A stretch of DNA of 64,000 nucleotides from a phage, in NCBI GenBank assembly GCA_020619395.1, contig GCA_020619395.1_4860.1; one strand, 5' to 3'. Below, one piece after another: positions 7,709 through 63,887 of the stretch. Numbering within the stretch: position 1 is the first letter of the stretch; every line of letters starts with the position of its first letter. A program made the position numbers and the translations under genes. The notes beneath the pieces are model-generated. The model was not told where the DNA came from and made no database searches. It was given only the letters and a program-made list of their open reading frames with translations.

Positions 7709-8546
7709 CGTCGATTCCTAGTTTCTTCAAAAGTTCGGTTCGATCAAACGTACTGTCCTCAGGATCGATATGTTCGGCTATCATCTCAATCAGATTCGGT
7801 AGCCAGTCCCAGTGTGCCGGGAATATCTTACGCCCTTGCATCATGTAATAATGCTTAAGCGGGATACGTGCCCGCAGAATCTCCGCAAACACATTACCTA
7901 ACGAAGTCCCGTCGACCGACAGTATAAAGAGTTTATTTACCAGCGCATGGATAAAGCGGCTTTCTGTAACCGGGGTAAATGAACCGGGCTTATAACTGGT
8001 TCCTCCGTAGATTTCCGCTTTCAGATTACGACCTAACCGGATACAGTCGGTGCCATCTAGCGCACGTAACTTCTCAATATCTGGCCAGGTGTTCACCGCT
8101 TGTCGCATGATATCAAATTCCATCACCAAAGTGCGGTTATCAATTTCACGCATTAAGTAATCCAGAATACGCAGGTAATGATAATAACCTTCGAGCGTCC
8201 GGAAAGGGCCGTGGGGGGTAACAAAATACTCACCAGGGCGAGCGTAAAAGTTGCTCGCCATTCGACCTATCTCAGTTCGCCCCTGCGAATAGATGTTGAA
8301 GTGATTCAGACCGTCTGTAGACGGCGTGATATCCACCAAGGTACTCTGGTAACCCATACGCAGTAAATAGCGTACAAAGGCTTCCTTTTCTTCTGGTGGG
8401 AGGATGGGACGTAAAACAGGATATGTAGTTTCTACCGAGGCGGGCAACGTAAACCCAAAAGCAGCCGCCAAAGCATCCACCGATGCACCATCGACACGTA
8501 GACGTTCCAACGCACTACGCAAAAACTTACCTTCATCTTTCGACAT
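7695..8546 (-). CDS. hypothetical protein
   Basis: 283-aa ORF. Confidence 0.55.
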   Translation of the reverse strand: MSKDEGKFLRSALERLRVDGASVDALAAAFGFTLPASVETTYPVLRPILPPEEKEAFVRYLLRMGYQSTLVDITPSTDGLNHFNIYSQGRTEIGRMASNFYARPGEYFVTPHGPFRTLEGYYHYLRILDYLMREIDNRTLVMEFDIMRQAVNTWPDIEKLRALDGTDCIRLGRNLKAEIYGGTSYKPGSFTPVTESRFIHALVNKLFILSVDGTSLGNVFAEILRARIPLKHYYMMQGRKIFPAHWDWLPNLIEMIAEHIDPEDSTFDRTELLKKLGIDDGTI

Positions 8547-8555
8547 AGAGGTACC

Positions 8556-9830: not shown

Positions 9831-10689
9831 TGGAACTCCAGAATCTATACGTCGCTAACGGAACGTTGTCGCTGACCTCATATTCTCTACCACTGCGATG
9901 GCGAACTTTGAAAGTGATTTCGAACTCACGTACGTCCAGCGCTTGTAAGATTATTAGAAACCAACGCCAGGTGATTGCCTCGGTGTGACGCATCGCCTGT
10001 TTCATGTTGTTTCGTCTGTCCCCACGTTTGGATGATGTGCCTGGGCACAACTTAGGGTTGTTGACGTAGTTCGTCGTCCACCGTTCCAGTTTATCGCCAT
10101 CGATTTTATACCCACGAATAACTTTGTAGATTAGACGCAGGAGAATATGCTTCATCACATGTTCGATGGTGTGGTCGATGTTCGCGACATACTCGTTAAC
10201 GTCGTGAGATGCAGGATGCTCGAAACGCTCTTTACGTTTCTTCCTATTCTCATTACGTAAGTTCTTAATGAAGTCCTCACGCACAAACGTACTGTCGAAT
10301 ACAAAACACTTCGTGTCAAAGCTTCCCCGCTTAGTCAGCAGGGTGACTGTTAGCGTTTGCATCTCCAGGATAACTAATCCCTCGATGAAACGTTTCCACG
10401 TAAAATCGACTGTCAGGTTACGTACTGAACCACCCGTAAGTGAGGTGTTCAGCCGGTTAACGCGGTCGGTCATCGTGGTCAGTTTGCTGTCGCGAAACTG
10501 TTTCAGATACTCCGGGTCGTTGACATGTTGACGGATAAGGTCTTTCCATATCCCGTCGCTAATACCCATCAACTTAACCAGATTCCAATAAGCTTTCCTT
10601 AACGGGTAGCTGGAATCTGACGCCGGTGGCGTACCGTGCCAAATTTGCTCGCGTGTGCTATTCAGCGGCGGCTTTTTCTCATCATCCAT
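9811..10689 (-). CDS. hypothetical protein
   Basis: 292-aa ORF; basic KR-rich segment. Confidence 0.5.
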   Translation of the reverse strand: MDDEKKPPLNSTREQIWHGTPPASDSSYPLRKAYWNLVKLMGISDGIWKDLIRQHVNDPEYLKQFRDSKLTTMTDRVNRLNTSLTGGSVRNLTVDFTWKRFIEGLVILEMQTLTVTLLTKRGSFDTKCFVFDSTFVREDFIKNLRNENRKKRKERFEHPASHDVNEYVANIDHTIEHVMKHILLRLIYKVIRGYKIDGDKLERWTTNYVNNPKLCPGTSSKRGDRRNNMKQAMRHTEAITWRWFLIILQALDVREFEITFKVRHRSGREYEVSDNVPLATYRFWSSNETEQP

Positions 10690-10722
10690 ACATCACCTTG
10701 TTACAAGGGAATAGATTAAAAG

Positions 10723-11253
10723 TTAGAGATAGTGTTCCACTATCACTTCTAACTCGCGGAAGATATGTGCGGTTTGATTAAACAGCGTATCCTGTTCGGG
10801 TGTTTGTTTATCAAATGCACGCTGATACAGTTCTAACATAGCGAAGACTGTGCGCAGTTTATCGCGCGCGACTTCAGGATCGGATGCACCGAAATAATGA
10901 TCAAGCCATCGTGGTTCTGAACTCTCTCCTTTTCTATCGATTGCCTCAGGCAACTCTAACCAACGTTGATTGGGAATGTTGCTACTGGATACACGGTTAT
11001 ACTCAGAAATGAAGAATTCCAATCGCTCCACCAACGTGTCAAAATCTCGAATACGTAATTCGAGTTGTCCACGCAATGAAAAAGGAAGGTATTCTTTCCC
11101 ATTATATTCCAGAGGCTCTGTAATGAGTTCTAAGCCCACCATCACTCTGTGTAGGGTGTTATGGGTATTCTTATGAAACTCAGCCTCCAAAGAGCGTCTG
11201 CGAGCTTCTACAGCCTTACGACGCAGGAGTGTTGAAAGCCATTTAAAAAGCAT
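10723..11253 (-). CDS. hypothetical protein
   Basis: 176-aa ORF. Confidence 0.5.
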   Translation of the reverse strand: MLFKWLSTLLRRKAVEARRRSLEAEFHKNTHNTLHRVMVGLELITEPLEYNGKEYLPFSLRGQLELRIRDFDTLVERLEFFISEYNRVSSSNIPNQRWLELPEAIDRKGESSEPRWLDHYFGASDPEVARDKLRTVFAMLELYQRAFDKQTPEQDTLFNQTAHIFRELEVIVEHYL

Positions 11254-11280
11254 AGGTGTTATCCTATTATGAGATGTTGT

Positions 11281-11305
11281 CTCAGATAGATAATATCTGT
11301 CTGAG
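11281..11305. promoter_or_regulatory. palindromic intergenic motif CTCAGATAGATAATATCTGTCTGAG (candidate operator/promoter element)
   Basis: imperfect 25-nt palindrome in divergent intergenic region; core AGATAATATCT recurs at 19832, 28925 and, degenerate, at 35864, 41449, 37685. Confidence 0.4.
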
Positions 11306-11329
11306 TTCTTTTTGAGATGAGGTTATCCC

Positions 11330-11800
11330 ATGAGCGAAGAAGTGAAATACCAAGCGTTCGACGGAGATGTGGACAACGAAGATTCGCTTCTCCGCCAAAC
11401 ACAACAGCTACGCGTTAAGCTCGTCACAGATATGGTGAACGACGGTGAAGTACACAAAGACTTAAAAGCCGTCGACCGAATCGAACGCCTAATCAACGGC
11501 ATCGACAAACAGGTCATGACGAAGCGGAAAATTAAAGCTGCTGAGAAAGGCGCTGAGGCGACTCAAGATTTGGCCAACAGTTTAAACGGCTTCTTAATGA
11601 CCCGTGCAGGCGTTGGTATCAAACGTCACGACGATGAAGAAGATTTAAATAACGGATACCAACCCACCGTCCCACAGATTGCCGCAGTACGGCCTCCGAA
11701 AGAAGGTGAGTTGGCACCAGTAGGCGAAAAGATTGACGTTGACCAGATCATGGCGTCTGCGTTTGCGAGTCGTCGTCCTGCTGATGACGACGAAGACTAA
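11330..11800 (+). CDS. hypothetical acidic protein
   Basis: 156-aa ORF, lone plus-strand gene; ATG preceded by motif region. Confidence 0.5.
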   Translation: MSEEVKYQAFDGDVDNEDSLLRQTQQLRVKLVTDMVNDGEVHKDLKAVDRIERLINGIDKQVMTKRKIKAAEKGAEATQDLANSLNGFLMTRAGVGIKRHDDEEDLNNGYQPTVPQIAAVRPPKEGELAPVGEKIDVDQIMASAFASRRPADDDED

Positions 11801-12476
11801 ACAGCGCAGTGTCCTTTACGTCAGTACCGACGTATTGAGCAAGAAAACGGGTGGACTCCTTAAAGGGGTTCACCTTATCTCTTTTTATTTGCGCGATGGC
11901 TTCTTCCGTTAATTCGCTGGTCAGCATACTCGGTCGGGTAATGGTGAAATCCGGAATCGGTTTCTGGAAATGGCCCGCGTGTTGTTCTATCCACGGGTAC
12001 CAGTCGTACATTATCCAACCGTCCCACGCCGAAGCAAGTCGTCCTGGTGTAAGATCGCTGTGAGGAATAACAACGACGTCTACTTGCACTTCGTTATAGT
12101 AGTAACGCAGTTCTTCCAAAAACGCATGACGTTCTTCATCATCGAGATCAGCGTACGGCCACAGGTTAAACGTTAAGACTGGTCGCTCGATAGGAGCGTG
12201 CATCTGTATCGTCATTAACATTGCCTGTACTTCGTTCTTTAGCGTAAGCAACATTTCTGTTGGCTGCGCGTTCTGCAACGCGCGTTTATCACGCTCCGCG
12301 AACTTTTTATTCCAGTCCTGAATTCCTACCACTTCGGCCCACGCATCCGTGAACCGCATCCGATACACTTCTAAATCAAGCTTCTCTAATACATCAGGCT
12401 GCAACACTTTCGCCCAACCAATTCGTGTATCGAAGATTGTGTCGATATCGACTAAGAAACGGCGTCCTAATCTCAT
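11748..12476 (-). CDS. hypothetical protein
   Basis: 242-aa ORF; 3' end overlaps convergent plus gene by about 53 nt. Confidence 0.5.
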   Translation of the reverse strand: MRLGRRFLVDIDTIFDTRIGWAKVLQPDVLEKLDLEVYRMRFTDAWAEVVGIQDWNKKFAERDKRALQNAQPTEMLLTLKNEVQAMLMTIQMHAPIERPVLTFNLWPYADLDDEERHAFLEELRYYYNEVQVDVVVIPHSDLTPGRLASAWDGWIMYDWYPWIEQHAGHFQKPIPDFTITRPSMLTSELTEEAIAQIKRDKVNPFKESTRFLAQYVGTDVKDTALFSLRRHQQDDDSQTQTP

Positions 12477-13141
12477 TCCGGGCGTCCTAAGTTGTTACCG
12501 ATGTGCATTGCTTTAAAGTACGAAGACCATGTACGCGGCGCTTTTGAACTGGTACGCTCAGCCCCTTCCAGGTTGATGCGACCTTTACCGGTTTGCCGTA
12601 GCGATTGATAGAACGCACGTTGTAACGTATCGTTACCACCACGCGCCCACAGGAACTCCTGGAGCGTTGAGTCGTGTCCATCCGAGTACATGATGTACGC
12701 TTCTGGAAACGAAACACCCGAAGCTTTGGAAGGCCCTACTACCTGACCTGAGAGTTTATCGCGGACTTTATCGTTCTTCGCCACCGCCATTTTCTTCTCT
12801 TGCATCTGCGTCTGGCGACGTGCAGGTAGCCGGAAGACTAAATGGGGGTAACGGGTACGCTGTAGGATACCGGTTTTCGGTTCCGTGAGCCACAGGCGCT
12901 GACACAAGTTCAGTCCCATCGCTTCGCAAATTTTAATATTGCGCATATGGTCAATTTTGACCTTGCCGCCAGTTGGGTTGTAAACAGGCAACCCTTCGCG
13001 CAGACGATTGAACTCTTCGTCAGACATTCGTGAGAAAGCGCGCTTGGCAGCTTCCGCGTTAATCCCGGTCGGGTCAACTAAGTTCAGTAACTGTAAAGCA
13101 TAAGCTTCTGCTTTTTTTCGCCGTGCCGGGTCTAATCTCAT
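12473..13141 (-). CDS. hypothetical protein
   Basis: 222-aa ORF, 4-nt overlap with downstream gene. Confidence 0.5.
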   Translation of the reverse strand: MRLDPARRKKAEAYALQLLNLVDPTGINAEAAKRAFSRMSDEEFNRLREGLPVYNPTGGKVKIDHMRNIKICEAMGLNLCQRLWLTEPKTGILQRTRYPHLVFRLPARRQTQMQEKKMAVAKNDKVRDKLSGQVVGPSKASGVSFPEAYIMYSDGHDSTLQEFLWARGGNDTLQRAFYQSLRQTGKGRINLEGAERTSSKAPRTWSSYFKAMHIGNNLGRPE

Positions 13142-52573: not shown

Positions 52574-52648
52574 GACGGACTGCCTACGGGCGGGTAGTCC
52601 GTAGGTAAACCGCCCTTCCGTTATTGGGAGGGCGGTCTCCGTTTTATT
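52574..52648 (+). terminator. tandem hairpins / probable terminator between fibre genes
   Basis: two GC-rich stem-loops (cctacgg/ccgtagg; accgccc/gggcggt) followed by ccgttttatt. Confidence 0.45.
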
Positions 52649-52668: not shown

Positions 52669-55600
52669 ATGCCGAGAGAAGATGCGGCGCAGTTTAACGG
52701 TACCCTCAGTACCGCTACTTACCCGAACCGTTATTCGACGGTCATTCCCGTCGAAGCACCGTTCTATCGCATCGGGTTAACGTTAACCGTTACCGATAAA
52801 ACAACCGGAACCAAACGCAAGTTAATAGAAGGTCTTGATTATTTCTTAGGACATTACTTCCAGGAATTAGCCGAGGCTGAGAACGATGCAATATACGGCA
52901 GCATAATGCTGCTGAACGCCACAGAGGTAGAATACGAGTTGTTGTCGGTTGGTCGACAGTATCGCATCCCTGCTTCTGAAATCGGCAAGTATCTGGTTAA
53001 GACAGATATGAAAGACCCGCGTAACTGCGATTGGTCTGAGCTGATGAAATATCCGCCGATTATCTCGCCAATCGACCCGCCAAAAGATCTCGAAGAAGCC
53101 ATCCTTCGCGATGAGATTGTAAAGGCGCTGGAAGATATCCGACTGGGCATTTTAGAACGTGCCCACGAACTGGATGAGGCTTTTGCCGAAGTTACCGATT
53201 TGATTTATCAGAACGGTAAACAGGTGTTTGATGACGAAATGTATCAACACCACCTGATTAAAAATGCACATGGTTACACCTGTGGCGATATCGGTGCACT
53301 CCCTGTGCTCGGTAAGGCCGTGGATGCGACTAAGGCGTTTGGACGTACACTGGCAGAGCTAGTGACGTTAATGTCTACCAGCGGCATCCAACAGAAACAC
53401 GTTGACATGCTTCTGGATAATACCCTGGGTGATTTACTGGGCCGTATGCGTGTTCTGAATAACGACGCGATTACGTTCCAAACAACGTCTGGTCACGTTA
53501 TCAGCATGAAGGGTGAGAAGTTCATTATCACCTCGACAAAACCGCTGGTATTAAAAGCTGACCAGGATAACAACGAACCGGGTATCGCTACGGAGTTCAG
53601 TGCTGGTCTGAACACGCTTTGGGTTCACTCGGGTAAAGCAGGTGACAAGTGGGGCGCTTATGATGCAGGTGTGCTTGCACCTGTATATAACAGCGTGTAT
53701 CTCGTTACACCGGATATGGTTAAGATGTACTTGACCTCGGTGAAGATACTTCCAGCAAACGCCTACTTCAAGTCCAGCGACACGTTGAAGATTTACGGCT
53801 CTGGTAAAGAAACAAACAAAGTTTACATGAATGCGGAGCTGCCTGCAGCAACCACAACTGTGCAGGGTTTGTTTGCGATTACTAACCTCTCGGCATCCGC
53901 TGCAGCGTCCACAGCGATTTCCCAAAAAGCTGTTACTGACTTGAAGAACAAACTCGACGGATATGTGGACGACACGTATACAGTCAATGGTAAAGGGTTT
54001 GTATTAGATTCAAACGGGCAGATGCATCTGACCTTAACCGCGGCAGATTTCGGTATTGAGAAGATGAACAATACCGGACCGCTGGAGAAACCGGTTACTA
54101 ATGCGTTGCGCACCGTGCTATCAGGCAAAGCGCTTACAACGCACACCCACACCATTGCAGATCTCGATAACGTGCCGTACGCATCCACGTCTGTTACAGG
54201 TTTGGCTAAACTGTGGGATGCAATCGACACTACCTCGGATAAGATGGTCACTTCGCGTCAGGGCTTCTTGCTTGAACAAAAGATTGACACACTGAATGAC
54301 AAGATTGCTACGCTGTTGCCCGCATGGACTGTCGGCGGATCATCGTACGGCAACAATAACTTCTTGCCTATACCTGTCCAGGGGAACTACGAAGGGTATA
54401 CCAAAAACCAAACCTGGCAGAAAGGTTTGGCGCGTTACGAGTCTGGTAAGGTTTACTCGCTCCGTAACGGTTCTAACGGGAATCCACCAGGTGACTGGGC
54501 TATCTATTACGCCTATGCTGATGTGTCGCCAAGCAATACGCTGGAAAATATGCAGCAGACGTCCGTACGTTATCGACCCGCTGGAATGTCGGCGTATCCT
54601 GGGGTGAATCTGGTTGCTATTGTGATTACCGGTACCGATGCAATGATCTGCTTAGGCAGTGACGGTGCGTACTACCTGGTCATCTTCGATGGGACGATTG
54701 ACCATGCAAAACATCATCGTGTTGTTAAAGTGGTGTTGGGTGATTACAAGAACGGTAATGGTGCGGGCACAGTAACGACAGCACCGTGGGCTCCAAACGC
54801 TTCTACAGACGATTTGATTGTTTGTAATGAGCGTGTCTACCTGTTGCGTACGGTGCTTACCTCCGGTGACTATTTCGTGAGTATGCGTAGCATCGCACTC
54901 AACGAACTTAATCCGGGTGGTAGCAACACGTTTGTGGCGGATGCGTTAACAGGCGGGATATTAACGTCGGGTGAAAACGTTTATCTACGACAGGGACAGA
55001 AACGTGCAGCTTCCGATGCGCTCCCAGCACCAGTTACACAGATCTACGCAGACGCGTTAGCGAAATGGAACAATGCAATCAACTTTGTACATGGCCCTGA
55101 GTGTAATCACGCGATTGGTGTTGATGGGCTGAAATTTCGTGTTGGTTTAACGCCAACAGTCTGGTTTGCCTCCTCCACAGGACAGACGATTAACTTTAAA
55201 CAGTGGACGTCAAGCTTTGTTGTCGACTGTAGCGCATTAACGGTAACTCTGGAAGGCGCTGATCGATTCCCTATTGTGGCTGATCTTACCACGGTTCGTT
55301 ATAACAGTGGTGCTGAGATTGGGATTCCGAGCCGGAAGTGGGGCGAAGGCCAAGCTAATAACAAAACCTTTGCAACATCGCAAGACAAGTATATTGTTTC
55401 GCAAGGACATGCAGGCGATCGCGACCTAATGCCTTATGTCACGATTACAACGTTAGATGACGGTGTGAGTTGGTACGAGTACCTGTCGTGCGACTACAAC
55501 TTCACTGCCAGAAGTTTTAGTGCGGTAATGTTAAACCAAGGTCGTGGTTCTATCTACGAGCTGGGTATGGCGTATCCGCTGACTCTGGGAGCGAATTCCA

Positions 55601-57852
55601 GACTTATCTGGTTGTCACAACCGCGTTCCCGTTTGGCAATTGAAGTTGAGTTTGATCCGAACACCACTTACTCAGGTAAGGCGGGGTATGGCCCAACTAA
55701 CAATCGTCGTGTAGTAGATTCTATCACGTATGAGAATCTGTCGCAGATGTGCCACATTGTTACACCGGCGTCGCCTGGTACAGAGTTAAACGGCTGGTAT
55801 TGCACAGGACCAGAAACATTCCCTTATCACAACGTTTCTGGCACTTTCACGATTCATGCCGATCGGTTGACGCTGTCACAAGCCGAATGGGATAAGATGA
55901 AGCAGATGATCATCGACGGTGCACCGGCTGGCGCTGCGAATGGTTATGCTTCGGAATTTATCCTTGCCGCAAATAACGCAGGAAAGGCATTGTTCTCCGT
56001 TTGGTTCATCGGCATTGGTACGGCCACACCGCTCACGTTAGCACAAGTAGCATGTACGCGTACTGTGAACAACGTTAACGTGTTGGATATCTACTACTTT
56101 ACACTGAAACCAACAATCAGCAACGGGCAGGTAACATTCCCCGCAGCGATATTGGCTTTGTTTGACTTCTATAACAACCTCGACTATGGCTTGAACTATG
56201 CTACGTTGGGTGAGATAACGGGAGGAAAAACACGCCGGCCGGGACAACCTACACTGGTGTCGGTAGATGGTACTCGGTTCGGGTTGTATCTTCCACACAC
56301 GTTAACCTTGCGCCTGATTGGCGACTTGGGTGCGCTTAACTACGCTGTTGGTCTTACGCTGTCTAATGGTACTTGGACGCGTTCTTCTGCTCCACACGGC
56401 GTTGGACGTATGGCACCGGCACACACTCCAGTCAGTCCAGCTTATCTGGCCCATCGCGATCAAGTGATGCTACACAACTCATCTCTCGACTACGTCTACT
56501 GTGGTGGTATCGCAACGTCGTCGAGTGATTTTGTCGCGGCTCCTAATTTTAGTGGCCCGACTGAATCGGTTGTCATTGCTGGTGTGGAAACAGCTGAAGG
56601 TTGGCTGGTATATGTGACTGAGGAAGTTGACCTGCGTTTCGGCTCGAGCACTTATAAGCTGCCTACGTGGTATATTGACCTCAGCGCAGCATTTCCAACA
56701 AACCATCAGAACCGGACATTCTACCTGCACGCCAAGGTAGAAAATGGTACACCGAAGTACGTAATGGACGTGATTCAACATCCAGACACTGAAACGGAAC
56801 TCTATATCGGGTATGTTAAAACGGGCTCGTCGCGAGTCGTCGAGACTAACGTCGAACATGCTAAGCGATTAGGGGCGGTGAAACAACTGTTGGAACATGC
56901 GGCGGTTGAGAATAAGCATGATGTGGAGGTGGGAAGGGATGCAGCAACGGGCAGACTGGCACCATTGCGTAAAGAAGCGATGGGTCCTTTGTCGATCGAT
57001 GCTACGAAAGGCTATCTGGATAGTCAGTTGCTTTATACCGTATCCGACGCACAGCGTCGCGGTAAAGCGATGGTGTCCAAACGTTTCGAAGGCTTGAAAA
57101 CTTTGCCGGCGTTTACTCAGGCAAACAAGTCGGGGGCGTTTTGGAAACATCCTACAACAATTGCGACGGTAACGGCCGATGAGAACAGTGAAGCGACATC
57201 GTTGGGTATGGAGTGGGTAGGTATTCCAACGCCCGCTTTCGCTCCGACCTCAACAAACCTGATGGTGGTGGTGCAAAGTAAATTCGTCGTCCCAGGTACA
57301 CCGGGAGTAGAAACGACCTTTAATGTCCACGTTGCCCCATGGGAGGCGGTGGATGGCTTTTTCTACAACGTCGAGGCGGAAGGTACGGATGTTAACATTG
57401 ATGAAAATCCAGAAGTGTTATTGCCGTCACCACATACCGTGCACCACAAACAGCACTCTCTGCCAGCAGGCGTGCCGTGTACCTTTACATTTGTCGCGGC
57501 GGTAAGTTCTTCAGCGCTCGAAACAGCTAACCAGCATATTTGCTCTTGGCTTTTCACTGACGCTGGGGGACTACCAATCACCACCGATCTTTCGGATAGT
57601 AAGATTCAAATCTTACCACAGCCGGGAGAGACCAACGGCACACCAGTTGTTCTGAACAGTCGTAGCTACACGTTTACGAATGTGACAGGTGCAATCCCGG
57701 TTGTTACCACGGGCGCTCAGGGTTTATTCCCACCACCGATCGTGGCGTGGGATGGCGATGATCTTACGTTAACGATTGCGCACGATTGGGTGAACGAGAG
57801 GGGACGTCAACAGCCTGATGTTATCCAGGTCAATCTTATGTTCCGTACCTAA
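52669..57852 (+). CDS. tail fibre protein 3
   Basis: about 1727 aa from ATG at 52669 with SD aggag (ORF track extends to TTG 52624); repeats TTTVQGLFAITN, STSVTGLAKLWD; HTHTIADL. Confidence 0.75.
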   Translation: MPREDAAQFNGTLSTATYPNRYSTVIPVEAPFYRIGLTLTVTDKTTGTKRKLIEGLDYFLGHYFQELAEAENDAIYGSIMLLNATEVEYELLSVGRQYRIPASEIGKYLVKTDMKDPRNCDWSELMKYPPIISPIDPPKDLEEAILRDEIVKALEDIRLGILERAHELDEAFAEVTDLIYQNGKQVFDDEMYQHHLIKNAHGYTCGDIGALPVLGKAVDATKAFGRTLAELVTLMSTSGIQQKHVDMLLDNTLGDLLGRMRVLNNDAITFQTTSGHVISMKGEKFIITSTKPLVLKADQDNNEPGIATEFSAGLNTLWVHSGKAGDKWGAYDAGVLAPVYNSVYLVTPDMVKMYLTSVKILPANAYFKSSDTLKIYGSGKETNKVYMNAELPAATTTVQGLFAITNLSASAAASTAISQKAVTDLKNKLDGYVDDTYTVNGKGFVLDSNGQMHLTLTAADFGIEKMNNTGPLEKPVTNALRTVLSGKALTTHTHTIADLDNVPYASTSVTGLAKLWDAIDTTSDKMVTSRQGFLLEQKIDTLNDKIATLLPAWTVGGSSYGNNNFLPIPVQGNYEGYTKNQTWQKGLARYESGKVYSLRNGSNGNPPGDWAIYYAYADVSPSNTLENMQQTSVRYRPAGMSAYPGVNLVAIVITGTDAMICLGSDGAYYLVIFDGTIDHAKHHRVVKVVLGDYKNGNGAGTVTTAPWAPNASTDDLIVCNERVYLLRTVLTSGDYFVSMRSIALNELNPGGSNTFVADALTGGILTSGENVYLRQGQKRAASDALPAPVTQIYADALAKWNNAINFVHGPECNHAIGVDGLKFRVGLTPTVWFASSTGQTINFKQWTSSFVVDCSALTVTLEGADRFPIVADLTTVRYNSGAEIGIPSRKWGEGQANNKTFATSQDKYIVSQGHAGDRDLMPYVTITTLDDGVSWYEYLSCDYNFTARSFSAVMLNQGRGSIYELGMAYPLTLGANSRLIWLSQPRSRLAIEVEFDPNTTYSGKAGYGPTNNRRVVDSITYENLSQMCHIVTPASPGTELNGWYCTGPETFPYHNVSGTFTIHADRLTLSQAEWDKMKQMIIDGAPAGAANGYASEFILAANNAGKALFSVWFIGIGTATPLTLAQVACTRTVNNVNVLDIYYFTLKPTISNGQVTFPAAILALFDFYNNLDYGLNYATLGEITGGKTRRPGQPTLVSVDGTRFGLYLPHTLTLRLIGDLGALNYAVGLTLSNGTWTRSSAPHGVGRMAPAHTPVSPAYLAHRDQVMLHNSSLDYVYCGGIATSSSDFVAAPNFSGPTESVVIAGVETAEGWLVYVTEEVDLRFGSSTYKLPTWYIDLSAAFPTNHQNRTFYLHAKVENGTPKYVMDVIQHPDTETELYIGYVKTGSSRVVETNVEHAKRLGAVKQLLEHAAVENKHDVEVGRDAATGRLAPLRKEAMGPLSIDATKGYLDSQLLYTVSDAQRRGKAMVSKRFEGLKTLPAFTQANKSGAFWKHPTTIATVTADENSEATSLGMEWVGIPTPAFAPTSTNLMVVVQSKFVVPGTPGVETTFNVHVAPWEAVDGFFYNVEAEGTDVNIDENPEVLLPSPHTVHHKQHSLPAGVPCTFTFVAAVSSSALETANQHICSWLFTDAGGLPITTDLSDSKIQILPQPGETNGTPVVLNSRSYTFTNVTGAIPVVTTGAQGLFPPPIVAWDGDDLTLTIAHDWVNERGRQQPDVIQVNLMFRT

Positions 57853-57899
57853 CAGATAGCGCTATGGGGCAAGGAAGCCCCAATCAAAGGAGTTTGGCA

Positions 57900-59102
57900 A
57901 TGGCCGAAATCATTTATCAGTACCCGCTTGACCTTACCGGGACATTAACGTCGAACGCCGTTACACGGCGTATTACGTTAGGTTCTGGTAAAGTTAACCG
58001 GGCTTTTGCTTTTCCTGACGGAGCTTTCTACGCGGATACCTTCCGCTTGGCAGCTGCGAATAAACCAGGTGTCTACCCGTACAAACGCGGCACAGACTAC
58101 GAACTGATTTTTGCACATACTGCATATCAGAAAATGACCAAGAACCGCGAAGTGGTCATGGGTGTGGTGGTAACTAACTCGGCCATTCCTACTGATATCG
58201 AAGTCTCTGCGCAAGTCGTTGGTGGTTTTCAGTCCGCGAACGTCGAAGGTATCCGACAAGCGATTGCGTCGCTGAAAATTGAAGACCGTGTGGTGGACTT
58301 CAAGGATCTTCGAAACGTACCTGATACGTTCCCATCCGCCCCGACGTATAAAGACCTTGGCGATATCTACGGTTTTGAGTATATCATTACCGTACTCGCT
58401 GGGATTAAAGATGCGATTAACTCCGGCTCTGCAGTACAGCTGGAAGAAATCAAAGGTATTCTGGACGGTCTGAAAAACGACTTCCTCGATGCCTTAAATG
58501 CCCACATCAACGCCGAAGGTAACGTACACAATCTCGACATTCATCAGGTTAATGGCCTGACGGAGACGGAGATTCGTGCTCTGATTCAAAGTGTACAGAC
58601 TGCCATTGACGCCACTATCAAAGATATCGGCGACTTAAGAGCAGCAGACACGGCGTTGGGGCAACGCATCGATGCAATTGTGGCTTCGTTAGCCGCGTGG
58701 AACGACCAGCTTAATGTAGTTGCTCAAAATTACCAGAAAATGTCGTTAGCATTAGCTAACCTTAATTCTCTGGTGTTGCAATTACAGAAGATGGTTAACG
58801 ATCTTCAGTCTGCACTGAATGAAACAAATCAGCGCGTCACGGATCTTGAGAATCAGGGCAAAGACTTCCAACAGCAAATTGATAACCTGCAAGGACAAAT
58901 CAACAGTCTTAAAACTCAGGTTATAAACAACACCAACGCAATTTCGCAGGCAAACCAGAATCTGGCGAACCATGCGGCTGCGGATAACCCACACCCGAAT
59001 TACCTCCATAAACAGTATGGCGGTGTTGTGCAGGCTGCTGTTCACGTCAACAACAGCCTCACCTCGCGCGACGATGTTCAAGCTGAAGCGGGTACTAAGT
59101 AA
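57900..59102 (+). CDS. tail fibre-like protein 4 with C-terminal coiled coil
   Basis: about 400 aa from ATG 57900 (SD aaaggag); N-terminal domain homologous to fibres 1-3; Q/N/L-rich heptad region near C-terminus. Confidence 0.65.
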   Translation: MAEIIYQYPLDLTGTLTSNAVTRRITLGSGKVNRAFAFPDGAFYADTFRLAAANKPGVYPYKRGTDYELIFAHTAYQKMTKNREVVMGVVVTNSAIPTDIEVSAQVVGGFQSANVEGIRQAIASLKIEDRVVDFKDLRNVPDTFPSAPTYKDLGDIYGFEYIITVLAGIKDAINSGSAVQLEEIKGILDGLKNDFLDALNAHINAEGNVHNLDIHQVNGLTETEIRALIQSVQTAIDATIKDIGDLRAADTALGQRIDAIVASLAAWNDQLNVVAQNYQKMSLALANLNSLVLQLQKMVNDLQSALNETNQRVTDLENQGKDFQQQIDNLQGQINSLKTQVINNTNAISQANQNLANHAAADNPHPNYLHKQYGGVVQAAVHVNNSLTSRDDVQAEAGTK

Positions 59103-59167
59103 CTTGTTTACGAGCCGGACTATGTTTATGGACATAGTCCGCTCGTTCTACTTTTTAAGGAAGCGTA

Positions 59168-59560
59168 ATGGCGATATCTATTAAAGACGTCAGAAACCGC
59201 GTCCAGATAGTCGAAGCTAACATGGCGACAGGCCCCCGCATCGAGGCGCAAGTGGCCTCTAAAGCCCATAATGCAGCAGACCGATTTGGGGGTTGGACGA
59301 AAGCACAGCTAGATTGCGGCGGGACATGTTCTTGGACGTGCTCTAACGGTTGCTCGCATGGCTGTTCGAGCTGTTCAGGAAGCTGTTCTGCTTCTTGTAT
59401 CGGTAGCTGTTCTTCGACGTGTGGCGGTAACTGTTCTGGTTGCTCTGGTTGTTCTGGTGGTTGCAGTAGTAGCTGTACCGGTAACTGTTCAGGTGGTTGC
59501 GGCGGCTCTTGTTCCGCAAACTGCTCCGGGGCCTGCTCCGGCGGCTGTTCAGGTCGCTAA
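59168..59560 (+). CDS. Cys/Ser/Gly-rich precursor-like peptide A (leader + C-x3-C repeat core, 21 Cys)
   Basis: 130 aa; SD aagga; about 50-aa leader then DCGGTCSWTCS... with Cys every 4th residue; adjacent to radical-SAM genes. Confidence 0.65.
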   Translation: MAISIKDVRNRVQIVEANMATGPRIEAQVASKAHNAADRFGGWTKAQLDCGGTCSWTCSNGCSHGCSSCSGSCSASCIGSCSSTCGGNCSGCSGCSGGCSSSCTGNCSGGCGGSCSANCSGACSGGCSGR

Positions 59561-59570
59561 GGGGGATTAA

Positions 59571-59972
59571 ATGGCAATTGGATTAAAAGAACTGAATAAC
59601 CGATTAAACGCGATCGATGCAAACGCTTTAAAGAACACCACGAATGTGCAAAACTACATTCGCAATAAAGCTACGAATAACGCCGACTTGTTCGCAGGTC
59701 AAGGCCGTTCGCACTATGACTGTGGTGGCACATGCTCTTTTAGTTGCTCGAGTTGTTCTGGCGGGTGTACTGGGTCTGCTACGGGCGGTTGTGGGTCGAC
59801 TTGTTCCGCAAACTGTGTATCGGGCTGTAGCAGTAGCTGTACGGGCTGTAGCTCTTCGTGCTCGGGTGGTTGTAGCGGAACGTGTACTGGTAACTGTTCT
59901 GGGGGTTGTGGTAAATCCTGCTCCGCAAACTGCTCCGGCGCGTGTTCTGGTGGTTGTTCAGGTCCTAACTGA
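59571..59972 (+). CDS. Cys/Ser/Gly-rich precursor-like peptide B (paralogue, 20 Cys)
   Basis: 133 aa; SD ggggga; leader homologous to A; core DCGGTCSFSCS...; C-terminus near-identical to A. Confidence 0.65.
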   Translation: MAIGLKELNNRLNAIDANALKNTTNVQNYIRNKATNNADLFAGQGRSHYDCGGTCSFSCSSCSGGCTGSATGGCGSTCSANCVSGCSSSCTGCSSSCSGGCSGTCTGNCSGGCGKSCSANCSGACSGGCSGPN

Positions 59973-59983
59973 CGGAGGCTTAT

Positions 59984-60190
59984 GTGATCAGTCTCAAGAC
60001 TATTCGAAACCGTCTCGTTACGGTAGAAGGTTACATTACAACCGCACAGGCAAACAACTATATCGCTAACCAGGGCACCGTGTCGACCACAAATAACCTG
60101 GCTGGCTTACCGCTTTCTCACTATAACTGTAATGGTGGGTGTAGCTGGTCCTGCAGCGGAAGCTGTAGCCGTGGAGCGGGGAATCGATAA
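59984..60190 (+). CDS. Cys-rich precursor-like peptide C (short core, 5 Cys)
   Basis: 68 aa; GTG start with SD ggagg; leader homologous to A/B (LK-x-IRNRL); core NCNGGCSWSCSGSCS. Confidence 0.5.
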   Translation: MISLKTIRNRLVTVEGYITTAQANNYIANQGTVSTTNNLAGLPLSHYNCNGGCSWSCSGSCSRGAGNR

Positions 60191-60212
60191 CAGAAAACGT
60201 TCGGAGTATTAA

Positions 60213-61100
60213 ATGAAAAACGATTTGCATCTTGCGTATAAAACCACATTCAACCACCCGCTGCATCTATCTTCCCCAGATTCAGTGCGTGCGCACCTTG
60301 CTGACAAAGTCAGACTGATTGCACAGATTCCTGGTGAGTGGCCAAAGGTTCGTGGTCGCTTCTTGACCGACAAGAAGAACTACACCGTAGAAAATACGTT
60401 TAAGATCCGTGATATGGTTGCAGAGGCCATCGTTATCTTTAACGGCGATGGTAACTCTCGTGGCGTGTTAGTCGACGGTAAGTATTTCTTCAGTGAAGGG
60501 ATTTTGAACAACAGCGTCGATTTAGAACTGATGTTTACACCGTTTGACGAACTTGAAGCAAAACCGATGGCGCGCCGTTGGTGGAGTCCGGACTATCTGG
60601 GCTCGTTCCCTTACTACTTTGTACTGGTACCTGCCGATACGGAAACGTATTTCGACACCGAACCGTACATCGATATCGAGGGATATAAAGAACTCGGCAT
60701 CACCCGTTTAGCGGACATGATGGCGTATAGCTATAAGTTCGTGTGGGATAAAAAGCGTTCTGTCTGGTATGCGTTGACTGACGATTTTGAAATCACCAAA
60801 CGTATTCGTAAGCCGTGGATGCAACACCTGGTTCAAACCCGATATGGGGATTACCCGGCGACAGAAGCGGATTTGAGTAAGCTGGTAAGCTTCCTCTTAA
60901 CGAAGGTGGATTTAACGAAAGAAGAAGCAGAAGCTGTTTCTGAGATTCGTAGTCGTTCGGTAACGTTGGCCGATTTGAAACGCTTGAACGAAAGACACGC
61001 CGACCTGAACAAAATTTTAGCTGCCTATCACGACCCGATGTTACTGGTGCCTGGCGCTAATGTAGACGAAGATCCTTTATTCGCCATTGATTATATTTAA
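60213..61100 (+). CDS. hypothetical protein (cluster-associated, unknown function)
   Basis: 295-aa ORF with SD ggag, lying between precursor peptides and radical-SAM genes. Confidence 0.6.
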   Translation: MKNDLHLAYKTTFNHPLHLSSPDSVRAHLADKVRLIAQIPGEWPKVRGRFLTDKKNYTVENTFKIRDMVAEAIVIFNGDGNSRGVLVDGKYFFSEGILNNSVDLELMFTPFDELEAKPMARRWWSPDYLGSFPYYFVLVPADTETYFDTEPYIDIEGYKELGITRLADMMAYSYKFVWDKKRSVWYALTDDFEITKRIRKPWMQHLVQTRYGDYPATEADLSKLVSFLLTKVDLTKEEAEAVSEIRSRSVTLADLKRLNERHADLNKILAAYHDPMLLVPGANVDEDPLFAIDYI

Positions 61101-61122
61101 AAATATACTGGAGCAACCTGCA

Positions 61123-62037
61123 ATGACAGATCAAGTAGAATCCAGGATCTCGTCTGAACTGTACGACAAACCGTCAATTCTGTCGGTTGTCGCAACTTCT
61201 AAGTGTAACTTAGACTGTAGCTTCTGTGGAGGGGCTTATTACATGGATAGAGAAGATACTTCTCGTGAGTTTCAACGCGAAGAGATTCTCTCGATTTTAG
61301 AGAAGAATCCGGATATCGGTGAGATTCATTGGACGGGCGGTGAGCCGCTGTTAGCGCAGCGTAAGATTGAAGACTTCGTGAACGAGTTGAAGGAGTCTCA
61401 TCCGAACCTCCGTCATCACATGTACACCAACGGTTTAAAGATGCGTAAATCACATCTGCCGTTGCTGAAACAGTTCGACCTTATCTTTGTGTCCATTGAC
61501 GGCTACAAGAAGTCGGAACGTCCGTTTATGAACTTTGTAAACGGTGGTAATCACGAAGCGCTGGAAGTGCTGTACGAGCTGGACAACTATTACACCTGGG
61601 GTGTGATGACGCGTGACCAGTTAGGTGATAAACGCTGGTACGAAGATTTCATCGAGCTGCACCGAGCAATCTATCATTACCGTCCAGGTGGTGTGTCGTT
61701 GTTGTTTGATGCGATGATGCCGAAACCGTTATCGCCAGACCACGTCATGAACTTCATGTACGGGTATTGGAAAATACTCGACAATATCGAACGCCTTAAC
61801 ATGCAGAACGATTCTGAATGTGGGCTCGCGATCAGTAAAATGTTCGATACCGAGTGCAACACGTGCAGTGAAGTGCTGTGGCTTAACGCCGACGGTACGC
61901 AGGAGCAAATTCAGAACGCCCCAGAGATATTGGAAGTCGGCTGTAATCGCCTGGCGCGTTCTATCGGCGTTGATGCGTATAACTACATCAACCGTGTAAT
62001 TTCTGCTAAGCGTAAACGGGCGGCGAACAATGAGTAA
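61123..62037 (+). CDS. radical SAM enzyme (peptide-maturase-like)
   Basis: CNLDCSFC (CxxxCxxC) near N-terminus, GGEPLL SAM-binding motif, C-terminal extra Cys (ECG...CNTC...GC); ATG 61123 with SD tggag. Confidence 0.8.
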   Translation: MTDQVESRISSELYDKPSILSVVATSKCNLDCSFCGGAYYMDREDTSREFQREEILSILEKNPDIGEIHWTGGEPLLAQRKIEDFVNELKESHPNLRHHMYTNGLKMRKSHLPLLKQFDLIFVSIDGYKKSERPFMNFVNGGNHEALEVLYELDNYYTWGVMTRDQLGDKRWYEDFIELHRAIYHYRPGGVSLLFDAMMPKPLSPDHVMNFMYGYWKILDNIERLNMQNDSECGLAISKMFDTECNTCSEVLWLNADGTQEQIQNAPEILEVGCNRLARSIGVDAYNYINRVISAKRKRAANNE

Positions 62038-63358
62038 TAGCGAACAGCAAATCCAGTACACACCACGCACGTATCAGGTTGTGACTAACCTGTCATGTAA
62101 CCTGGACTGCGAATACTGCTACGAGCGTAAATATCCGCGTAACAACAAAGTAGCAGACGTGATTGATTTTATCCACGCTTGTTTCGAGCGCGATAAAGAT
62201 ATCCCGAACGTTGAAGTCATCATCGATATCATCGGTGGTGAGCCGTTCATGCAGCCTAAACTTCTTTTGGCGGCCTTTGAAACCGCAGAGAAGTTATGCG
62301 CAGAACACAATCGCCCGTATATGTTCAGTATCTCCACGAACGGTACGCTTCTGGACCGTCCGCTGAACAAAGAAATTATCGAGCGCTGGAAAGACAAACT
62401 GTCTATTGGGGTCTCCATCGATGGTTTACCTGAAGTCCATGACAAATATCGTATCTTTACCACGACGCGTGAAGGGTCGTACGAAGCTGCGGTACGCGGT
62501 TACAATTATCTGAAGAGTGTTGGCATCGCTGAACTGGGCGTAAAAGCGACGTTTACGATCGATACATTGCCGCACTATGCCGCCAGCATGAAATCGTTAA
62601 TTGACATGTCCGGCGGTGGTACCATTTCTGGTAATGTAACGTACGAAGATATCCTGCCGCGCCATATGGCGTTGGATATCGCGAACCAGATGATGGACGT
62701 GATGGACTACTGGATTGAGAAGGGTCTGCACACCAACCCGCGTAACACGATTACACACATCATCCCGGATGGCCTGAACTTTATGGCAACTTGGGACCCG
62801 GATTGGCGTGACAAACTCTTACACGACGACTCTGTTCGTCTCGACCCAGAACGCCTGAAACCGTACTGCGGTACGTTGACGCACATGACCTGTCTCGGCT
62901 TTGATCGCAAGATTTACGGTTGTAACCGTTTCATGTCCACGGTAACTTCCCGCTCTGCTGTAGCGGAACTGGTCGGTCGTGAGTTTGTGAGTCTGGACGG
63001 TGGTAAGCTGTTAGAAGAGATTCAAACGCAGTACACCAACTACCCAGAAACCTGTTTAGGGTGTCCGATGAAACACAGCTGCGGTAGCTGCGCAGCGGCA
63101 TCGTACGAAAACGGTGAAGGTACACTGGAAGACCGTAAAGCGTATCACGCCGAGCGTCGTCAGTGTGGTTGGACTACTGCGAAGCTGATGGCGGCGGAAT
63201 ATTGGTATCAGAAAACTGGTACGACTCGCGCATCAGATTTGCACGATAAATCCATGTGCTATTGTTCACGTTGTGTACGCCAACGTGCCGAAGCAGAAAA
63301 ATTACAAAACGGAGCCCAGAATGAAGTCAATACTGATTCACAATTTTACGAAGCGTAA
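62030..63358 (+). CDS. radical SAM/SPASM-domain enzyme (anSME/sactisynthase-like)
   Basis: CNLDCEYC (CxxxCxxC), GGEPF, C-terminal SPASM-type cluster CLGCPMKHSCGSC plus further Cys; start overlaps upstream stop (ATGAGTAATAG). Confidence 0.85.
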   Translation: MSNSEQQIQYTPRTYQVVTNLSCNLDCEYCYERKYPRNNKVADVIDFIHACFERDKDIPNVEVIIDIIGGEPFMQPKLLLAAFETAEKLCAEHNRPYMFSISTNGTLLDRPLNKEIIERWKDKLSIGVSIDGLPEVHDKYRIFTTTREGSYEAAVRGYNYLKSVGIAELGVKATFTIDTLPHYAASMKSLIDMSGGGTISGNVTYEDILPRHMALDIANQMMDVMDYWIEKGLHTNPRNTITHIIPDGLNFMATWDPDWRDKLLHDDSVRLDPERLKPYCGTLTHMTCLGFDRKIYGCNRFMSTVTSRSAVAELVGREFVSLDGGKLLEEIQTQYTNYPETCLGCPMKHSCGSCAAASYENGEGTLEDRKAYHAERRQCGWTTAKLMAAEYWYQKTGTTRASDLHDKSMCYCSRCVRQRAEAEKLQNGAQNEVNTDSQFYEA

Positions 63359-63887
63359 ACTGCACTTGGTCGATCGCTTCCTGCGCAAAAGCAAGCTGTA
63401 CAATGTGCACGCAATTGTGGCAGGGGAAGACTTCACTGATGAAATCCAAAGCCTGTTGATTAAATACGGGCTGAATGTGATGATCCCGGTCTACTGCGTT
63501 GAGAAAGGACACGAGTCTGTCGCGGAAATCGAAAAGCGCAACCCTGGCTTTGAGAAGCGACTGCTTGCATACCCACGCCACAAAATCGAACTGCTACGTC
63601 ACTCTATTGATGAAGCCAGTCCTGAAAGTTTAGTGGCATTGGGCTTGTCATTCCCGCGGATGCGTATTCGTAACTTACGCTCCAATAACCCGGTTGACGC
63701 TTATTACACAGAACGTCAAATCTTCGAAGAACACCTGCTCCCGCAGTTGGAAGAAGAAGAGCAACACAACATTTCTCTGTTGTGGGCCGGTAACCTCGAT
63801 CAGGACTTCCAGATGCTGGACTTCGGTTTGTTGTTAGAACTTGGCCTGATTGAGGAGGACGAATGTCTGTTACTGACAAAAGCTTAA
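63321..63887 (+). CDS. hypothetical protein
   Basis: about 188 aa from ATG 63321 with SD ggag (ORF track extends to 63273); start overlaps rSAM gene end. Confidence 0.5.
   Translation: MKSILIHNFTKRKLHLVDRFLRKSKLYNVHAIVAGEDFTDEIQSLLIKYGLNVMIPVYCVEKGHESVAEIEKRNPGFEKRLLAYPRHKIELLRHSIDEASPESLVALGLSFPRMRIRNLRSNNPVDAYYTERQIFEEHLLPQLEEEEQHNISLLWAGNLDQDFQMLDFGLLLELGLIEEDECLLLTKA

Follow-up and report, generated by a model that had tools for sequence, protein, structure and literature searches.

Cysteine-repeat peptides encoded beside two radical SAM enzymes in an SPN3US-like jumbo phage: candidate stand-alone versions of a tail-fibre end domain

Analysis of a 64,000-nucleotide (nt) stretch of phage DNA (contig GCA_020619395.1_4860.1 of assembly GCA_020619395.1; hereafter the window) revealed, at positions 59168-63358, a cassette in which three tandem genes for cysteine (Cys)-repeat peptides, called here pepA, pepB and pepC, are followed by a gene for a 295-amino-acid (aa) accessory protein and by genes for two radical S-adenosylmethionine (rSAM) enzymes. 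The best reading of the sequence comparisons is that the three peptides are stand-alone versions of a domain that elsewhere forms the distal C-terminal end of tail-fibre proteins. An earlier note on this DNA, made from the letters alone, had located these genes correctly and interpreted them as a pathway for a ribosomally made and post-translationally modified peptide (RiPP) fused to a tail-fibre module, offering a crosslinked virion or fibre component as one possible product. The evidence presented here favours that last possibility, and the wording on the fibre module proved an understatement, since a synteny comparison showed that in relatives the repeat belongs to the fibre polypeptide itself. 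In our judgment it is very probable that the repeats are substrates of the rSAM enzymes, and the balance tips somewhat toward a structural or fibre-associated product rather than a classical diffusible RiPP; that the chemistry is thioether formation is a tentative proposal, drawn from analogy.

Over positions 59100-63400 the DNA shares 98-99% identity with Salmonella phage SPN3US and phages close to it, ~240-kb jumbo myoviruses of the genus Seoulvirus, and at most 80% with Erwinia and Cronobacter relatives. Gene names follow SPN3US, where the order is gp168, gp167, three small open reading frames (ORFs), gp165, gp164 ('radical SAM 2'), gp163 ('radical SAM 1') and gp162; the window homologues of gp163 and gp164 are referred to as rSAM1 and rSAM2, and the loci compared carry L numbers. 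The cassette was found in 62 of 62 cultured SPN3US/phiEaH2/CR5-like phage records, at 63-100% identity.

The three peptide genes are paralogous and lie on the + strand. pepA (59168..59560) encodes 130 aa, of which the first 49 form the N-terminal region and the other 81 a C-[ST]-G-x repeat containing 21 Cys; pepB (59571..59972) encodes 133 aa with 20 Cys and the junction KATNNADLFAGQGRSHYDCGGTCSFSC; and pepC (59984..60190), which begins with GTG, encodes 68 aa with the same N-terminal region and entry motif. The earlier Cys counts for pepA and pepB were right, whereas pepC has four Cys rather than the five reported. All three match PHROG 6085 (E values of 7e-40, 1.8e-41 and 2.8e-25, respectively), and they match the NCBIfam model TIGR04114 weakly (18.4, 16.4 and 13.7 bits against a cut-off of 20), as they do TIGR04117. 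The pepA and pepB cores (81-83 aa) consist almost entirely of C, S, G, T, N and A, with a Cys content of ~26%, and follow the consensus C-[ST]-G-[SGT], with ~84% of the repeat in period 4 and ~16% in period 3. The strict C-x3-C spacing described before was borne out: the distance between successive Cys is 4 in 17 of 20 cases in pepA and 16 of 19 in pepB, the remaining gaps being 3 plus one of 8, while 200,000 shuffles of each core never gave more than 10 gaps of 4. The cores contain no Asp or Glu and are free of Lys and Arg, leaving them without tryptic sites; tryptic peptides expected from pepA, pepB and pepC include ATNNADLFAGQGR, NTTNVQNYIR, AHNAADR and FGGWTK.

Several observations indicate that the Cys frame is coding. 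A ribosome-binding site of the GGAG/AAGG type lies 6-10 nt upstream of each peptide ORF, and the Cys frame is the only one open in all eight divergent jumbo-phage orthologues, in which enzyme identity falls to ~63%. Across the eight phages, all 21 Cys columns of pepA and all 20 of pepB are 100% conserved, compared with 68-72% identity in the other leader and core columns; the non-Cys core positions are hypervariable and the N-terminal region is conserved. Differences between pepA and pepB are mostly synonymous or fall at small-residue positions, with every Cys retained. A recent DNA tandem repeat or low-complexity artefact was considered and rejected, Tandem Repeats Finder reporting two weak arrays only. 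pepC is kept in SPN3US-like and phiEaH2-like phages and is missing from the CR5, Phobos and Wellington-like loci L015-L017.

The link to tail fibres comes from the relatives of the cassette. Homologues of rSAM1 form three groups, the first consisting of jumbo-phage contigs (47-100% identity); among cultured phages, rSAM1 homologues were found in the 62 records above and in two unannotated faecal phage contigs (23-26% identity), and nowhere else. The second group, a close clade at 30-39% identity that is accompanied by gp165-like proteins, gp164-like rSAMs or both, spans P2-like and lambda-like phages, a contig linked to T4 gp13 and a Deferribacter prophage. A module of CXXX-repeat protein, gp165-like protein, rSAM2-like enzyme and rSAM1-like enzyme recurs in the Deferribacter prophage (L003) and in L004/5, L020, L021, L024, L025 and L026, usually in the order baseplate or tail genes, CXXX-ended protein, gp165-like protein, small rSAM and SPASM rSAM, although at some loci the last three stand in another order or one of them was not detected. 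rSAM2 and the 263-aa rSAM of L003 are homologous over their full length (E 2e-14).

Wherever the repeat was found in the close clade, it forms the C-terminus of a large protein (255-568 aa) encoded at a fibre-gene position. Two of these proteins match tail-fibre families outright: that of L020 (384 aa), encoded downstream of P2 J/I-type baseplate genes, matches the tail-collar fibre N-terminus PF12571 (E 1.8e-40), and that of L025 (437 aa) matches a PHROG tail fibre family (E 1e-31). The CXXX protein of L026 is a collagen-like fibre, those of L021 and L024 follow a lambda GpJ-like gene, that of L005 (568 aa) adjoins a T4 gp13-like gene, and that of the Deferribacter abyssi prophage (302 aa) follows a GpJ-like gene and carries HxH 'HDDRYYTETE' fibre repeats. 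Fibre motifs in these fused relatives include PF12571, HxH repeats, SPxLTGTPTAPT/LDTLNELA and collagen-like GXY.

The peptides and these fibre-like proteins share sequence at the point where the repeat begins. The family profile of the peptides, phrog_6085, matches the C-terminal 65-100 residues of the L025, L026, L021, L005 and L003 proteins (E 2.7e-14 to 7e-6), and because the matches begin at profile positions 17-36 they include part of the supposed leader. Common to both sets is an entry motif, LxGQ…YYxC..CSW[ST]C, exemplified by 'KATN-ADQLGGQAGSYYRCSDCSWTCS' in L003 and 'KATNNADLFAGQGRSHYDCGGTCSFSCS' in pepB. A regular expression for the junction motif matched five times across the 412,626 residues encoded by non-jumbo ORFs; three of the matches, in L003, L004/5 and L026, fall exactly where the repeat of the fibre or fibre-like protein starts. 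A hidden Markov model (HMM) of the Cys-free leader matched just one of 3,343 ORFs, with E 0.0016, at the fibre junction of L003. The distal part of the region that the earlier note called a leader, and the entry motif, are shared with the ends of tail-fibre shafts in other phages.

The third group is a far clade (~25% identity) with a single rSAM of ~440 aa that passes the cut-off of TIGR04115, the NCBIfam 'radical SAM peptide maturase, CXXX-repeat target family' (400-513 bits against 350 for L027, L030, L047 and L053). Its partners are 200-500-aa proteins with an N-terminal domain of ~110 aa and up to 103 repeat Cys, encoded among tail and fibre genes. Very large CXXX proteins were observed at L047:3932-5434, L030:5756-7198 and L065:3976-6789, one of 500 aa with 103 in-register Cys, one of 480 aa with 92, and one of 937 aa in which an internal repeat precedes a region rich in Gly/Thr ('GTGTGTGP') that resembles a beta-propeller; the rSAMs encoded with them are bona fide members of TIGR04115.

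The association with tail genes extends across viral loci. Near a related rSAM, a co-directional ORF with a CXXX run was present in 79 of 85 viral or phage loci, compared with only 12 of 80 loci from species-representative bacterial genomes. We compared with PHROGs the 103 non-redundant, co-directional proteins of at least 250 aa encoded within 5 kb of the CXXX gene in 36 non-jumbo viral loci; of the 25 families met most often, all that carry an annotation fall in the tail category, with baseplate wedge (12) first and then tail-collar fibre and tail fibre (4-6 each). Repeat length ranges from 4 to 103 Cys, and at least 475 viral stretches encode a related rSAM. A bacterial chromosomal origin of the SPN3US-type clade was considered and rejected: no close relatives were present in 100,044 species genomes, the best match having 28% identity and belonging to other SPASM clades.

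Both enzymes are rSAM proteins, as the earlier note had proposed. rSAM1 (62030..63358, +; 442 aa) contains the CX3CX2C motif (C23/C27/C30) and matches Pfam PF04055 at 55.6 bits, and rSAM2 scores 58.7-58.8 bits, both against a cut-off of 29.5. For the 'canonical SPASM' cluster ascribed to one of them, the Cys pattern and a full-length alignment of rSAM1 to SPASM peptide-maturase families hold, but the Pfam SPASM model PF13186 had no match in rSAM1, even at E values up to 5 and with the isolated C-terminal half, only Radical_SAM and Fer4_12 being found. The three Cys of the rSAM motif and SPASM residues C280, C298, C342, C345, C351, C354 and C379 are invariant in 25 homologues with identity down to 32%, and C288, the middle Cys of the first SPASM half, is common but not invariant. 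The seven-Cys pattern for two auxiliary [4Fe-4S] clusters (C-x9-15-G-x4-C ... C-x2-C-x5-C-x3-C ... C) is present with one variation, the spacing being C-x2-C-x5-C-x2-C as against a final x3 in the textbook SPASM domain.

HMM searches placed rSAM1 closest to peptide maturases, the enzyme type that had been predicted. Its top NCBIfam family is TIGR04115 (125.6 bits against a cut-off of 350; E 3e-36) and its second is PapB (NF047865; 113.6 bits against 340), followed by other peptide maturases, all below cut-off, and among solved structures the SCIFF maturase CteB (5WGG) is nearest in sequence (E 3e-10 over the rSAM core). These alignments support assignment of the larger enzyme as a SPASM enzyme of the peptide-maturase type. 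No N-terminal domain and no RiPP recognition element (RRE) was found in rSAM1. The earlier note had named nucleotide or cofactor metabolism as the families that would speak against a peptide-modifying role; similarity to MoaA, QueE, NrdG and viperin is limited to the rSAM core and far below cut-off, and these functions were rejected for both enzymes. The viperin (pVip) match covers only the N-terminal ~110 residues of the core, with 45-48 bits in PADLOC and 44.7 bits against 180 in NCBIfam. Jumbo-phage rSAM1 proteins also carry a C-terminal tail with a C-x-C-x2-C triad (C410-x-C412-x2-C415, window positions 63257-63274; MCYCSRC, VCNCYQC and ACDCPTC), which is missing from the shorter non-jumbo homologues and could be an additional metal site.

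rSAM2 (61123..62037, +, within an ORF open from 61087) is a 304-aa protein with a C28/C32/C35 CX3CX2C motif and C-terminal Cys C245-x2-C248 ... C274. Its start is most likely ATG 61123, which has GGAG 9 nt upstream and is the start used in phage Lh1B. With this start there is no overlap with the gene for the 295-aa protein; the two rSAM genes share 8 nt. The C-terminal Cys (C-x2-C ... G-C) are kept in 14-16 of 16 homologues and align with the first SPASM half of rSAM1-type enzymes, an arrangement that would suit a putative twitch-like half-SPASM region with a single auxiliary cluster; the score against the twitch rSAM family NF033640 is 40 bits, under the cut-off of 170. The best NCBIfam matches of rSAM2 (TIGR04084, HxsC and PapB) are all far below cut-off. 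In a 225-kb viral contig (L018:4543-5454), a second gp164-like rSAM paralogue lies between pepA and pepB, giving the order pepA, rSAM2', pepB, pepC, gp165, rSAM2 and rSAM1.

The accessory protein, a gp165 homologue (60213..61100, +; PHROG 8030), is encoded between substrate and enzymes in most of the related modules, with exceptions. The Deferribacter prophage encodes a homologue of 250 aa (BLASTP E 1e-9) at the corresponding position, and gp165-like proteins also occur in L021, L024, L025 and L026 (phmmer 1e-5 to 7e-12). No Pfam or NCBIfam family was matched. The AlphaFold2 (AF2) model is confident, with a predicted local distance difference test (pLDDT) score of 89.6, and had no match in the PDB (Z at most 4.5) and none in BFVD except its own orthologue, so the model suggests a protein of novel fold.

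Several observations weigh against a fibre role for the peptides. In SPN3US-type phages the substrates are free tandem paralogues of 68-133 aa, a layout typical of RiPP precursors, and several bacterial CXXX loci encode tandem peptides of 53-99 aa with leaders of ~20 aa, as in a classical RiPP; at L167 the cassette has no adjoining fibre genes. The Cys-free leader HMM had no match for L005, L021 or L026, and homology of the leader alone to fibre shafts is only weakly supported, so that the link to fibres rests on the junction motif and the shared accessory genes. The AF2 model of pepB, built from a 6-sequence alignment, is of low confidence (pLDDT 40.7), predicting helices at 5-18 and 23-34 and leaving the core unpredicted, and is thus uninformative on the Cys core. 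The analysis shows gene content, homologies, the fusions to fibre proteins in relatives and conservation; that the peptides are modified and enter the virion is inferred. With regard to chemistry, rSAM1 scores below the cut-offs of TIGR04115 and PapB, so that their chemistry cannot be transferred with confidence, and the Asp/Glu acceptors of PapB substrates (CX3[D/E]) are absent from the cores described here.

Some of these observations would be expected of a classical diffusible RiPP, whose ~50-aa leaders would be removed and whose crosslinked cores would be released at lysis to act on the host or on competitors as bacteriocin, signal or metal chelator. The small tandem precursors with their conserved N-terminus and hypervariable non-Cys core positions fit such a pathway, as do the peptide-maturase-type rSAM/SPASM enzyme, the bacterial relatives with short leaders, the L167 cassette away from fibre genes and the label 'AlbA' that the annotation pipeline of the SPFM2 record gives to gp163. 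Set against this, family searches found no RRE, fused or stand-alone, in or beside the cassette, and no leader peptidase, exporter or transporter (e.g. a C39-ABC transporter) or immunity gene in gp165, gp162, gp161 or neighbouring genes; of the RiPP pathway proposed earlier, the maturase-type enzyme and the leader/core precursors are thus present and these components are not. Furthermore, cores of 81-83 aa with 20-21 Cys far exceed known sactipeptides and ranthipeptides, the association with baseplate and fibre genes runs across 36 loci, and in the closest non-jumbo relatives the domain lies covalently within 255-568-aa proteins at fibre positions and so is not diffusible there. We consider a diffusible product unlikely. 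At L087:10402-11718, L090:10412-10991 and L099:12074-12846 (Bacillota, Ruminococcaceae metagenome-assembled genomes), two or three tandem CXXX peptides of 53-77 aa with ~20-aa leaders (e.g. MNNLFGFKKIHNENNDVNGY) lie ~1.3-3 kb downstream of a related rSAM/SPASM gene. At L167:4877-5098, an Acb2/Tad1-hairpin (anti-CBASS/Thoeris sponge-like) gene lies a few hundred bases upstream of the CXXX peptides, and a further rSAM gene is present at the edge of the locus.

Two other explanations were weighed. The Cys ladder might stay unmodified and bind Fe, Zn or Fe-S, or form disulfides after lysis, with the rSAM enzymes acting elsewhere or using the peptides as scaffold or cluster donor. A metallothionein-like composition (~26% Cys among small residues only), the metal-binding repeats known in phage fibres, the HxH motifs of the L003 fibre and the lack of an AF2 fold for the isolated chain would agree with this, but the strict, adjacent co-occurrence of rSAM and CXXX genes in 79 of 85 viral or phage loci, the bona fide membership of the far-clade rSAM in the CXXX-target family (400-513 bits against 350) and the suggestion of processive enzymatic recognition from the strict period 4 and conserved entry motif make it quite improbable. 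The least probable of the three alternatives is that the CXXX segment serves assembly only, as a transient intra- or intermolecular chaperone of fibre trimerisation (compare Peptidase_S74 and T4 gp38/gp57A) that is discarded afterwards. Its position at the fibre C-terminus, the placement of gp165 in the slot usual for tail-fibre assembly genes, the Peptidase_S74 fibres next to the L166 cassette and the DUF4376 protein downstream are in its favour; no protease domain or cleavage motif was identified, however, two rSAM enzymes would be costly for a disposable segment, and a repeat that varies from 4 to 103 Cys is more typical of exposed, adaptive fibre parts.

We therefore return to a crosslinked fibre element as the preferred interpretation and propose how it might be made. 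Late in infection, the peptides would be translated from the tail-fibre operon, and gp163, with one SAM cluster and two auxiliary clusters, would modify the repeat. gp164, with one twitch-like auxiliary cluster, might make a second type of link or act at other sites, and gp165 could be a non-catalytic adaptor or chaperone that presents the substrate. In sactisynthases and ranthisynthases, a 5'-deoxyadenosyl radical takes a hydrogen from a substrate carbon, and a Cys thiolate bound to an auxiliary cluster supplies the sulfur of a C-S bond. If PapB and CteB are taken as guides, the likeliest chemistry here is likewise removal of an H atom and then creation of a C-S bond; linkage along the C-[ST]-G-x units, whose [ST]-x-x-C spacing presumably resembles the N-x-x-C and C-x3-D motifs of small-ring ranthipeptides, would then give a ladder of small thioether rings. 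Disulfides cannot form in the reducing cytoplasm, where such a ladder would yield a rigid, redox- and protease-resistant rod before lysis. Once matured, the peptides would be built into the baseplate/fibre apparatus (gp167-gp170), where they would contact the host or add stability. That many tailed-phage lineages build their distal fibres from a repeat with Cys at every fourth residue, which one or two rSAM enzymes would turn in the cytoplasm into an unbroken ladder of thioether (or other C-S/C-C) crosslinks and which SPN3US-like phages would supply as three separate small subunits, is a generalisation to which we give somewhat less than even weight.

The published annotation bears on whether such peptides could have been detected. 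An off-frame V/A/L-rich ORF at 59644..60069 (+; L001:9545-9880), in the +1 frame of pepB and annotated SPN3US_0166 (gp166), is most likely no gene, since stop codons interrupt this frame in other jumbo phages and the Cys frame is always open. The SPN3US GenBank record thus calls gp166 in the +1 frame and leaves pepA and pepC unannotated, whereas the Lh1B and EC001 records annotate all three peptides, as hypothetical proteins. A search with pepB of 5.8 billion predicted proteins returned only 16 sequences, indicating that gene callers usually miss the peptide ORFs. The virion proteome of SPN3US lists gp167-171 and not gp163-166 (PMC5694885 supplement). pepA, pepB and pepC would have been undetectable in that study because they were absent from the search database and their cores lack tryptic sites, and with gp166 annotated off-frame the proteome was rejected as evidence on the location of the peptides; the absence of gp163-165 fits non-structural maturation enzymes. 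In the records LR535903, LR535905, LR535907 and LR535908 (phages SPFM5, 6, 9 and 10), the cassette matches as ~40 short pieces with frameshifted protein calls (P0081-P0084 and P0142-P0157), a pattern that suggests indel-rich (long-read, unpolished) assemblies rather than real gene decay.

Genes run in a single direction from 44717 to the end of the window with very short gaps, and the cassette forms one co-directional block (gaps of 10-65 nt) with gp170, gp169, gp168 and gp167, each of them a tail or fibre protein of the virion. The gp168 homologue, a baseplate/tail-fibre protein (52669..57852, +), has its annotated ATG at 52669 and a longest ORF from TTG 52624; gp168 has been found in SPN3US virions and assigned to the tail (PMC5105663; PMC5694885). 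The strongest terminator-like hairpin of the region (52609-52636; a 12-bp stem, 8 of its pairs GC, followed by a T-rich stretch) is found between gp169 and gp168 and overlaps the TTG, making the annotated ATG the likelier start and suggesting that the fibre block may comprise more than one transcription unit. The gp167 homologue directly upstream of the cassette (57864..59102, +) is a coiled-coil virion structural or 'viral fiber' protein (PHROG 2163 'virion structural protein', E 1e-108; Pfam matches of coiled-coil type), and gp167 was detected at 70-89% coverage in SPN3US virions (PMC5694885). A scan for sigma-70 promoters and terminators gave nothing usable inside the cassette, promoter-like sites being fewer than in shuffled sequence.

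Downstream, a gp162 homologue (63321..63887, +; 188 aa; PHROG 7988) overlaps the end of rSAM1 and is co-directional with it. Its membership in the module is uncertain: it matched no Pfam, NCBIfam or PADLOC family, and among the related loci compared such a gene is confined to jumbo phages. Next after gp162, just past the window end, SPN3US gp161 (L001:13770-14441) matches Pfam DUF4376 (36.9 bits against a cut-off of 25), a domain that we take to be frequent in phage proteins of the tail-fibre assembly type, in which case the fibre module would extend beyond the rSAM cassette. At L166, where rSAM1 is 47% identical (L166:2845-7902, 8001-12681), the cassette is rearranged to rSAM1, a 177-aa protein, two peptides, a 322-aa protein and rSAM2, and directly follows three tail-fibre-like genes, two of which encode Peptidase_S74 intramolecular chaperone domains.

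Peptide-crosslinking rSAM/SPASM enzymes are known from bacterial natural-product pathways. If the fibre interpretation is right, the cassette would provide the first virion structural element that enzymes crosslink in the manner of a RiPP, TIGR04114, TIGR04115 and PF27846 would gain a biological role, and the family of CXXX-repeat rSAM targets would belong mainly to phage fibres rather than to a natural-product pathway. Part of the virion would be rigidified covalently and independently of redox state in a reducing cytoplasm, tying infectivity to host Fe-S and SAM metabolism, and hundreds of metagenomic phages would carry unnoticed fibre components. Peptide genes that are missing or mis-framed in the reference annotation are invisible to published proteomes; SPN3US is amenable to genetics, and with amber mutants and raw proteomic data already available it offers a model in which the hypothesis is directly testable.

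The pairing of an rSAM enzyme with a CXXX target has already been catalogued computationally (TIGR04114, TIGR04115, TIGR04117 and PF27846, tSAM_targ_Cxxx_rpt), and the SPN3US-type module is a distinct variant of it. To our knowledge, the TIGR04114/TIGR04115 family has been defined only computationally. In both systems a Cys-Xaa3 repeat substrate is encoded beside an rSAM/SPASM enzyme, and the adjacency that characterises TIGR04115 is seen here, with pepA, pepB and pepC immediately upstream of the enzymes. Viral TIGR04115 members (400-513 bits) adjoin CXXX proteins of 200-500 aa, also among tail genes. Scoring 125.6 bits against the cut-off of 350, rSAM1 belongs to a sister clade rather than to the family; it lacks the N-terminal extension of ~35-45 residues found in the viral members, and the SPN3US-type module has a twitch-like second rSAM and a gp165-like protein, neither of which occurs at TIGR04115 loci. 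The tail-fibre connection appears undescribed, full-text literature searches having returned no paper that deals with this cassette, with TIGR04114/5 or with fibres modified by rSAM enzymes; a cyanophage rSAM from the literature was rejected as an unrelated enzyme.

Among characterised enzymes, PapB, the freyrasin maturase, offers what is probably the best chemical analogy for a Cys repeat of period 4. Its substrate has periodic Cys (CX3D repeats) that it converts into small i to i+4 thioether rings, and residues 22-357 of rSAM1 align to positions 12-319 of the 330 in the PapB model. PapB is encoded in bacterial RiPP clusters, in contrast to the phage fibre module with its 81-83-aa cores of 20-21 Cys. 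CteB (PDB 5WGG) shares the SPASM domain and a Cys-rich peptide substrate, but only the core aligns significantly; its residue 106 aligns with residue 22 of rSAM1, indicating that the N-terminal RRE domain of ~100 residues in CteB is missing from rSAM1. The sactipeptide/ranthipeptide layout is formally present, with a short precursor, an N-terminal leader and a Cys core beside an rSAM/SPASM gene, although the core is unusually long. The HxsB/HxsC system (TIGR03978/TIGR03977) likewise combines a large SPASM rSAM and a smaller rSAM with a short-period repeat substrate, and HxsC is the top match of the small L003 rSAM. The Hxs repeat is His/Ser rather than Cys, and both scores fall far under the cut-offs (rSAM1 against HxsB, 75 bits with a cut-off of 370; rSAM2 against HxsC, 45 bits with a cut-off of 268).

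In gene order, the module resembles the fibre-then-accessory arrangement of P2 H/G, of T4 gp37 with gp38/gp57A and of fibres with Peptidase_S74 chaperones, in which the domain concerned likewise lies at the distal C-terminus of the fibre. We know of no described fibre that needs rSAM enzymes. Two such enzymes would be the fibre maturation factors here, implying covalent chemistry, and in SPN3US the domain itself is split into small proteins.

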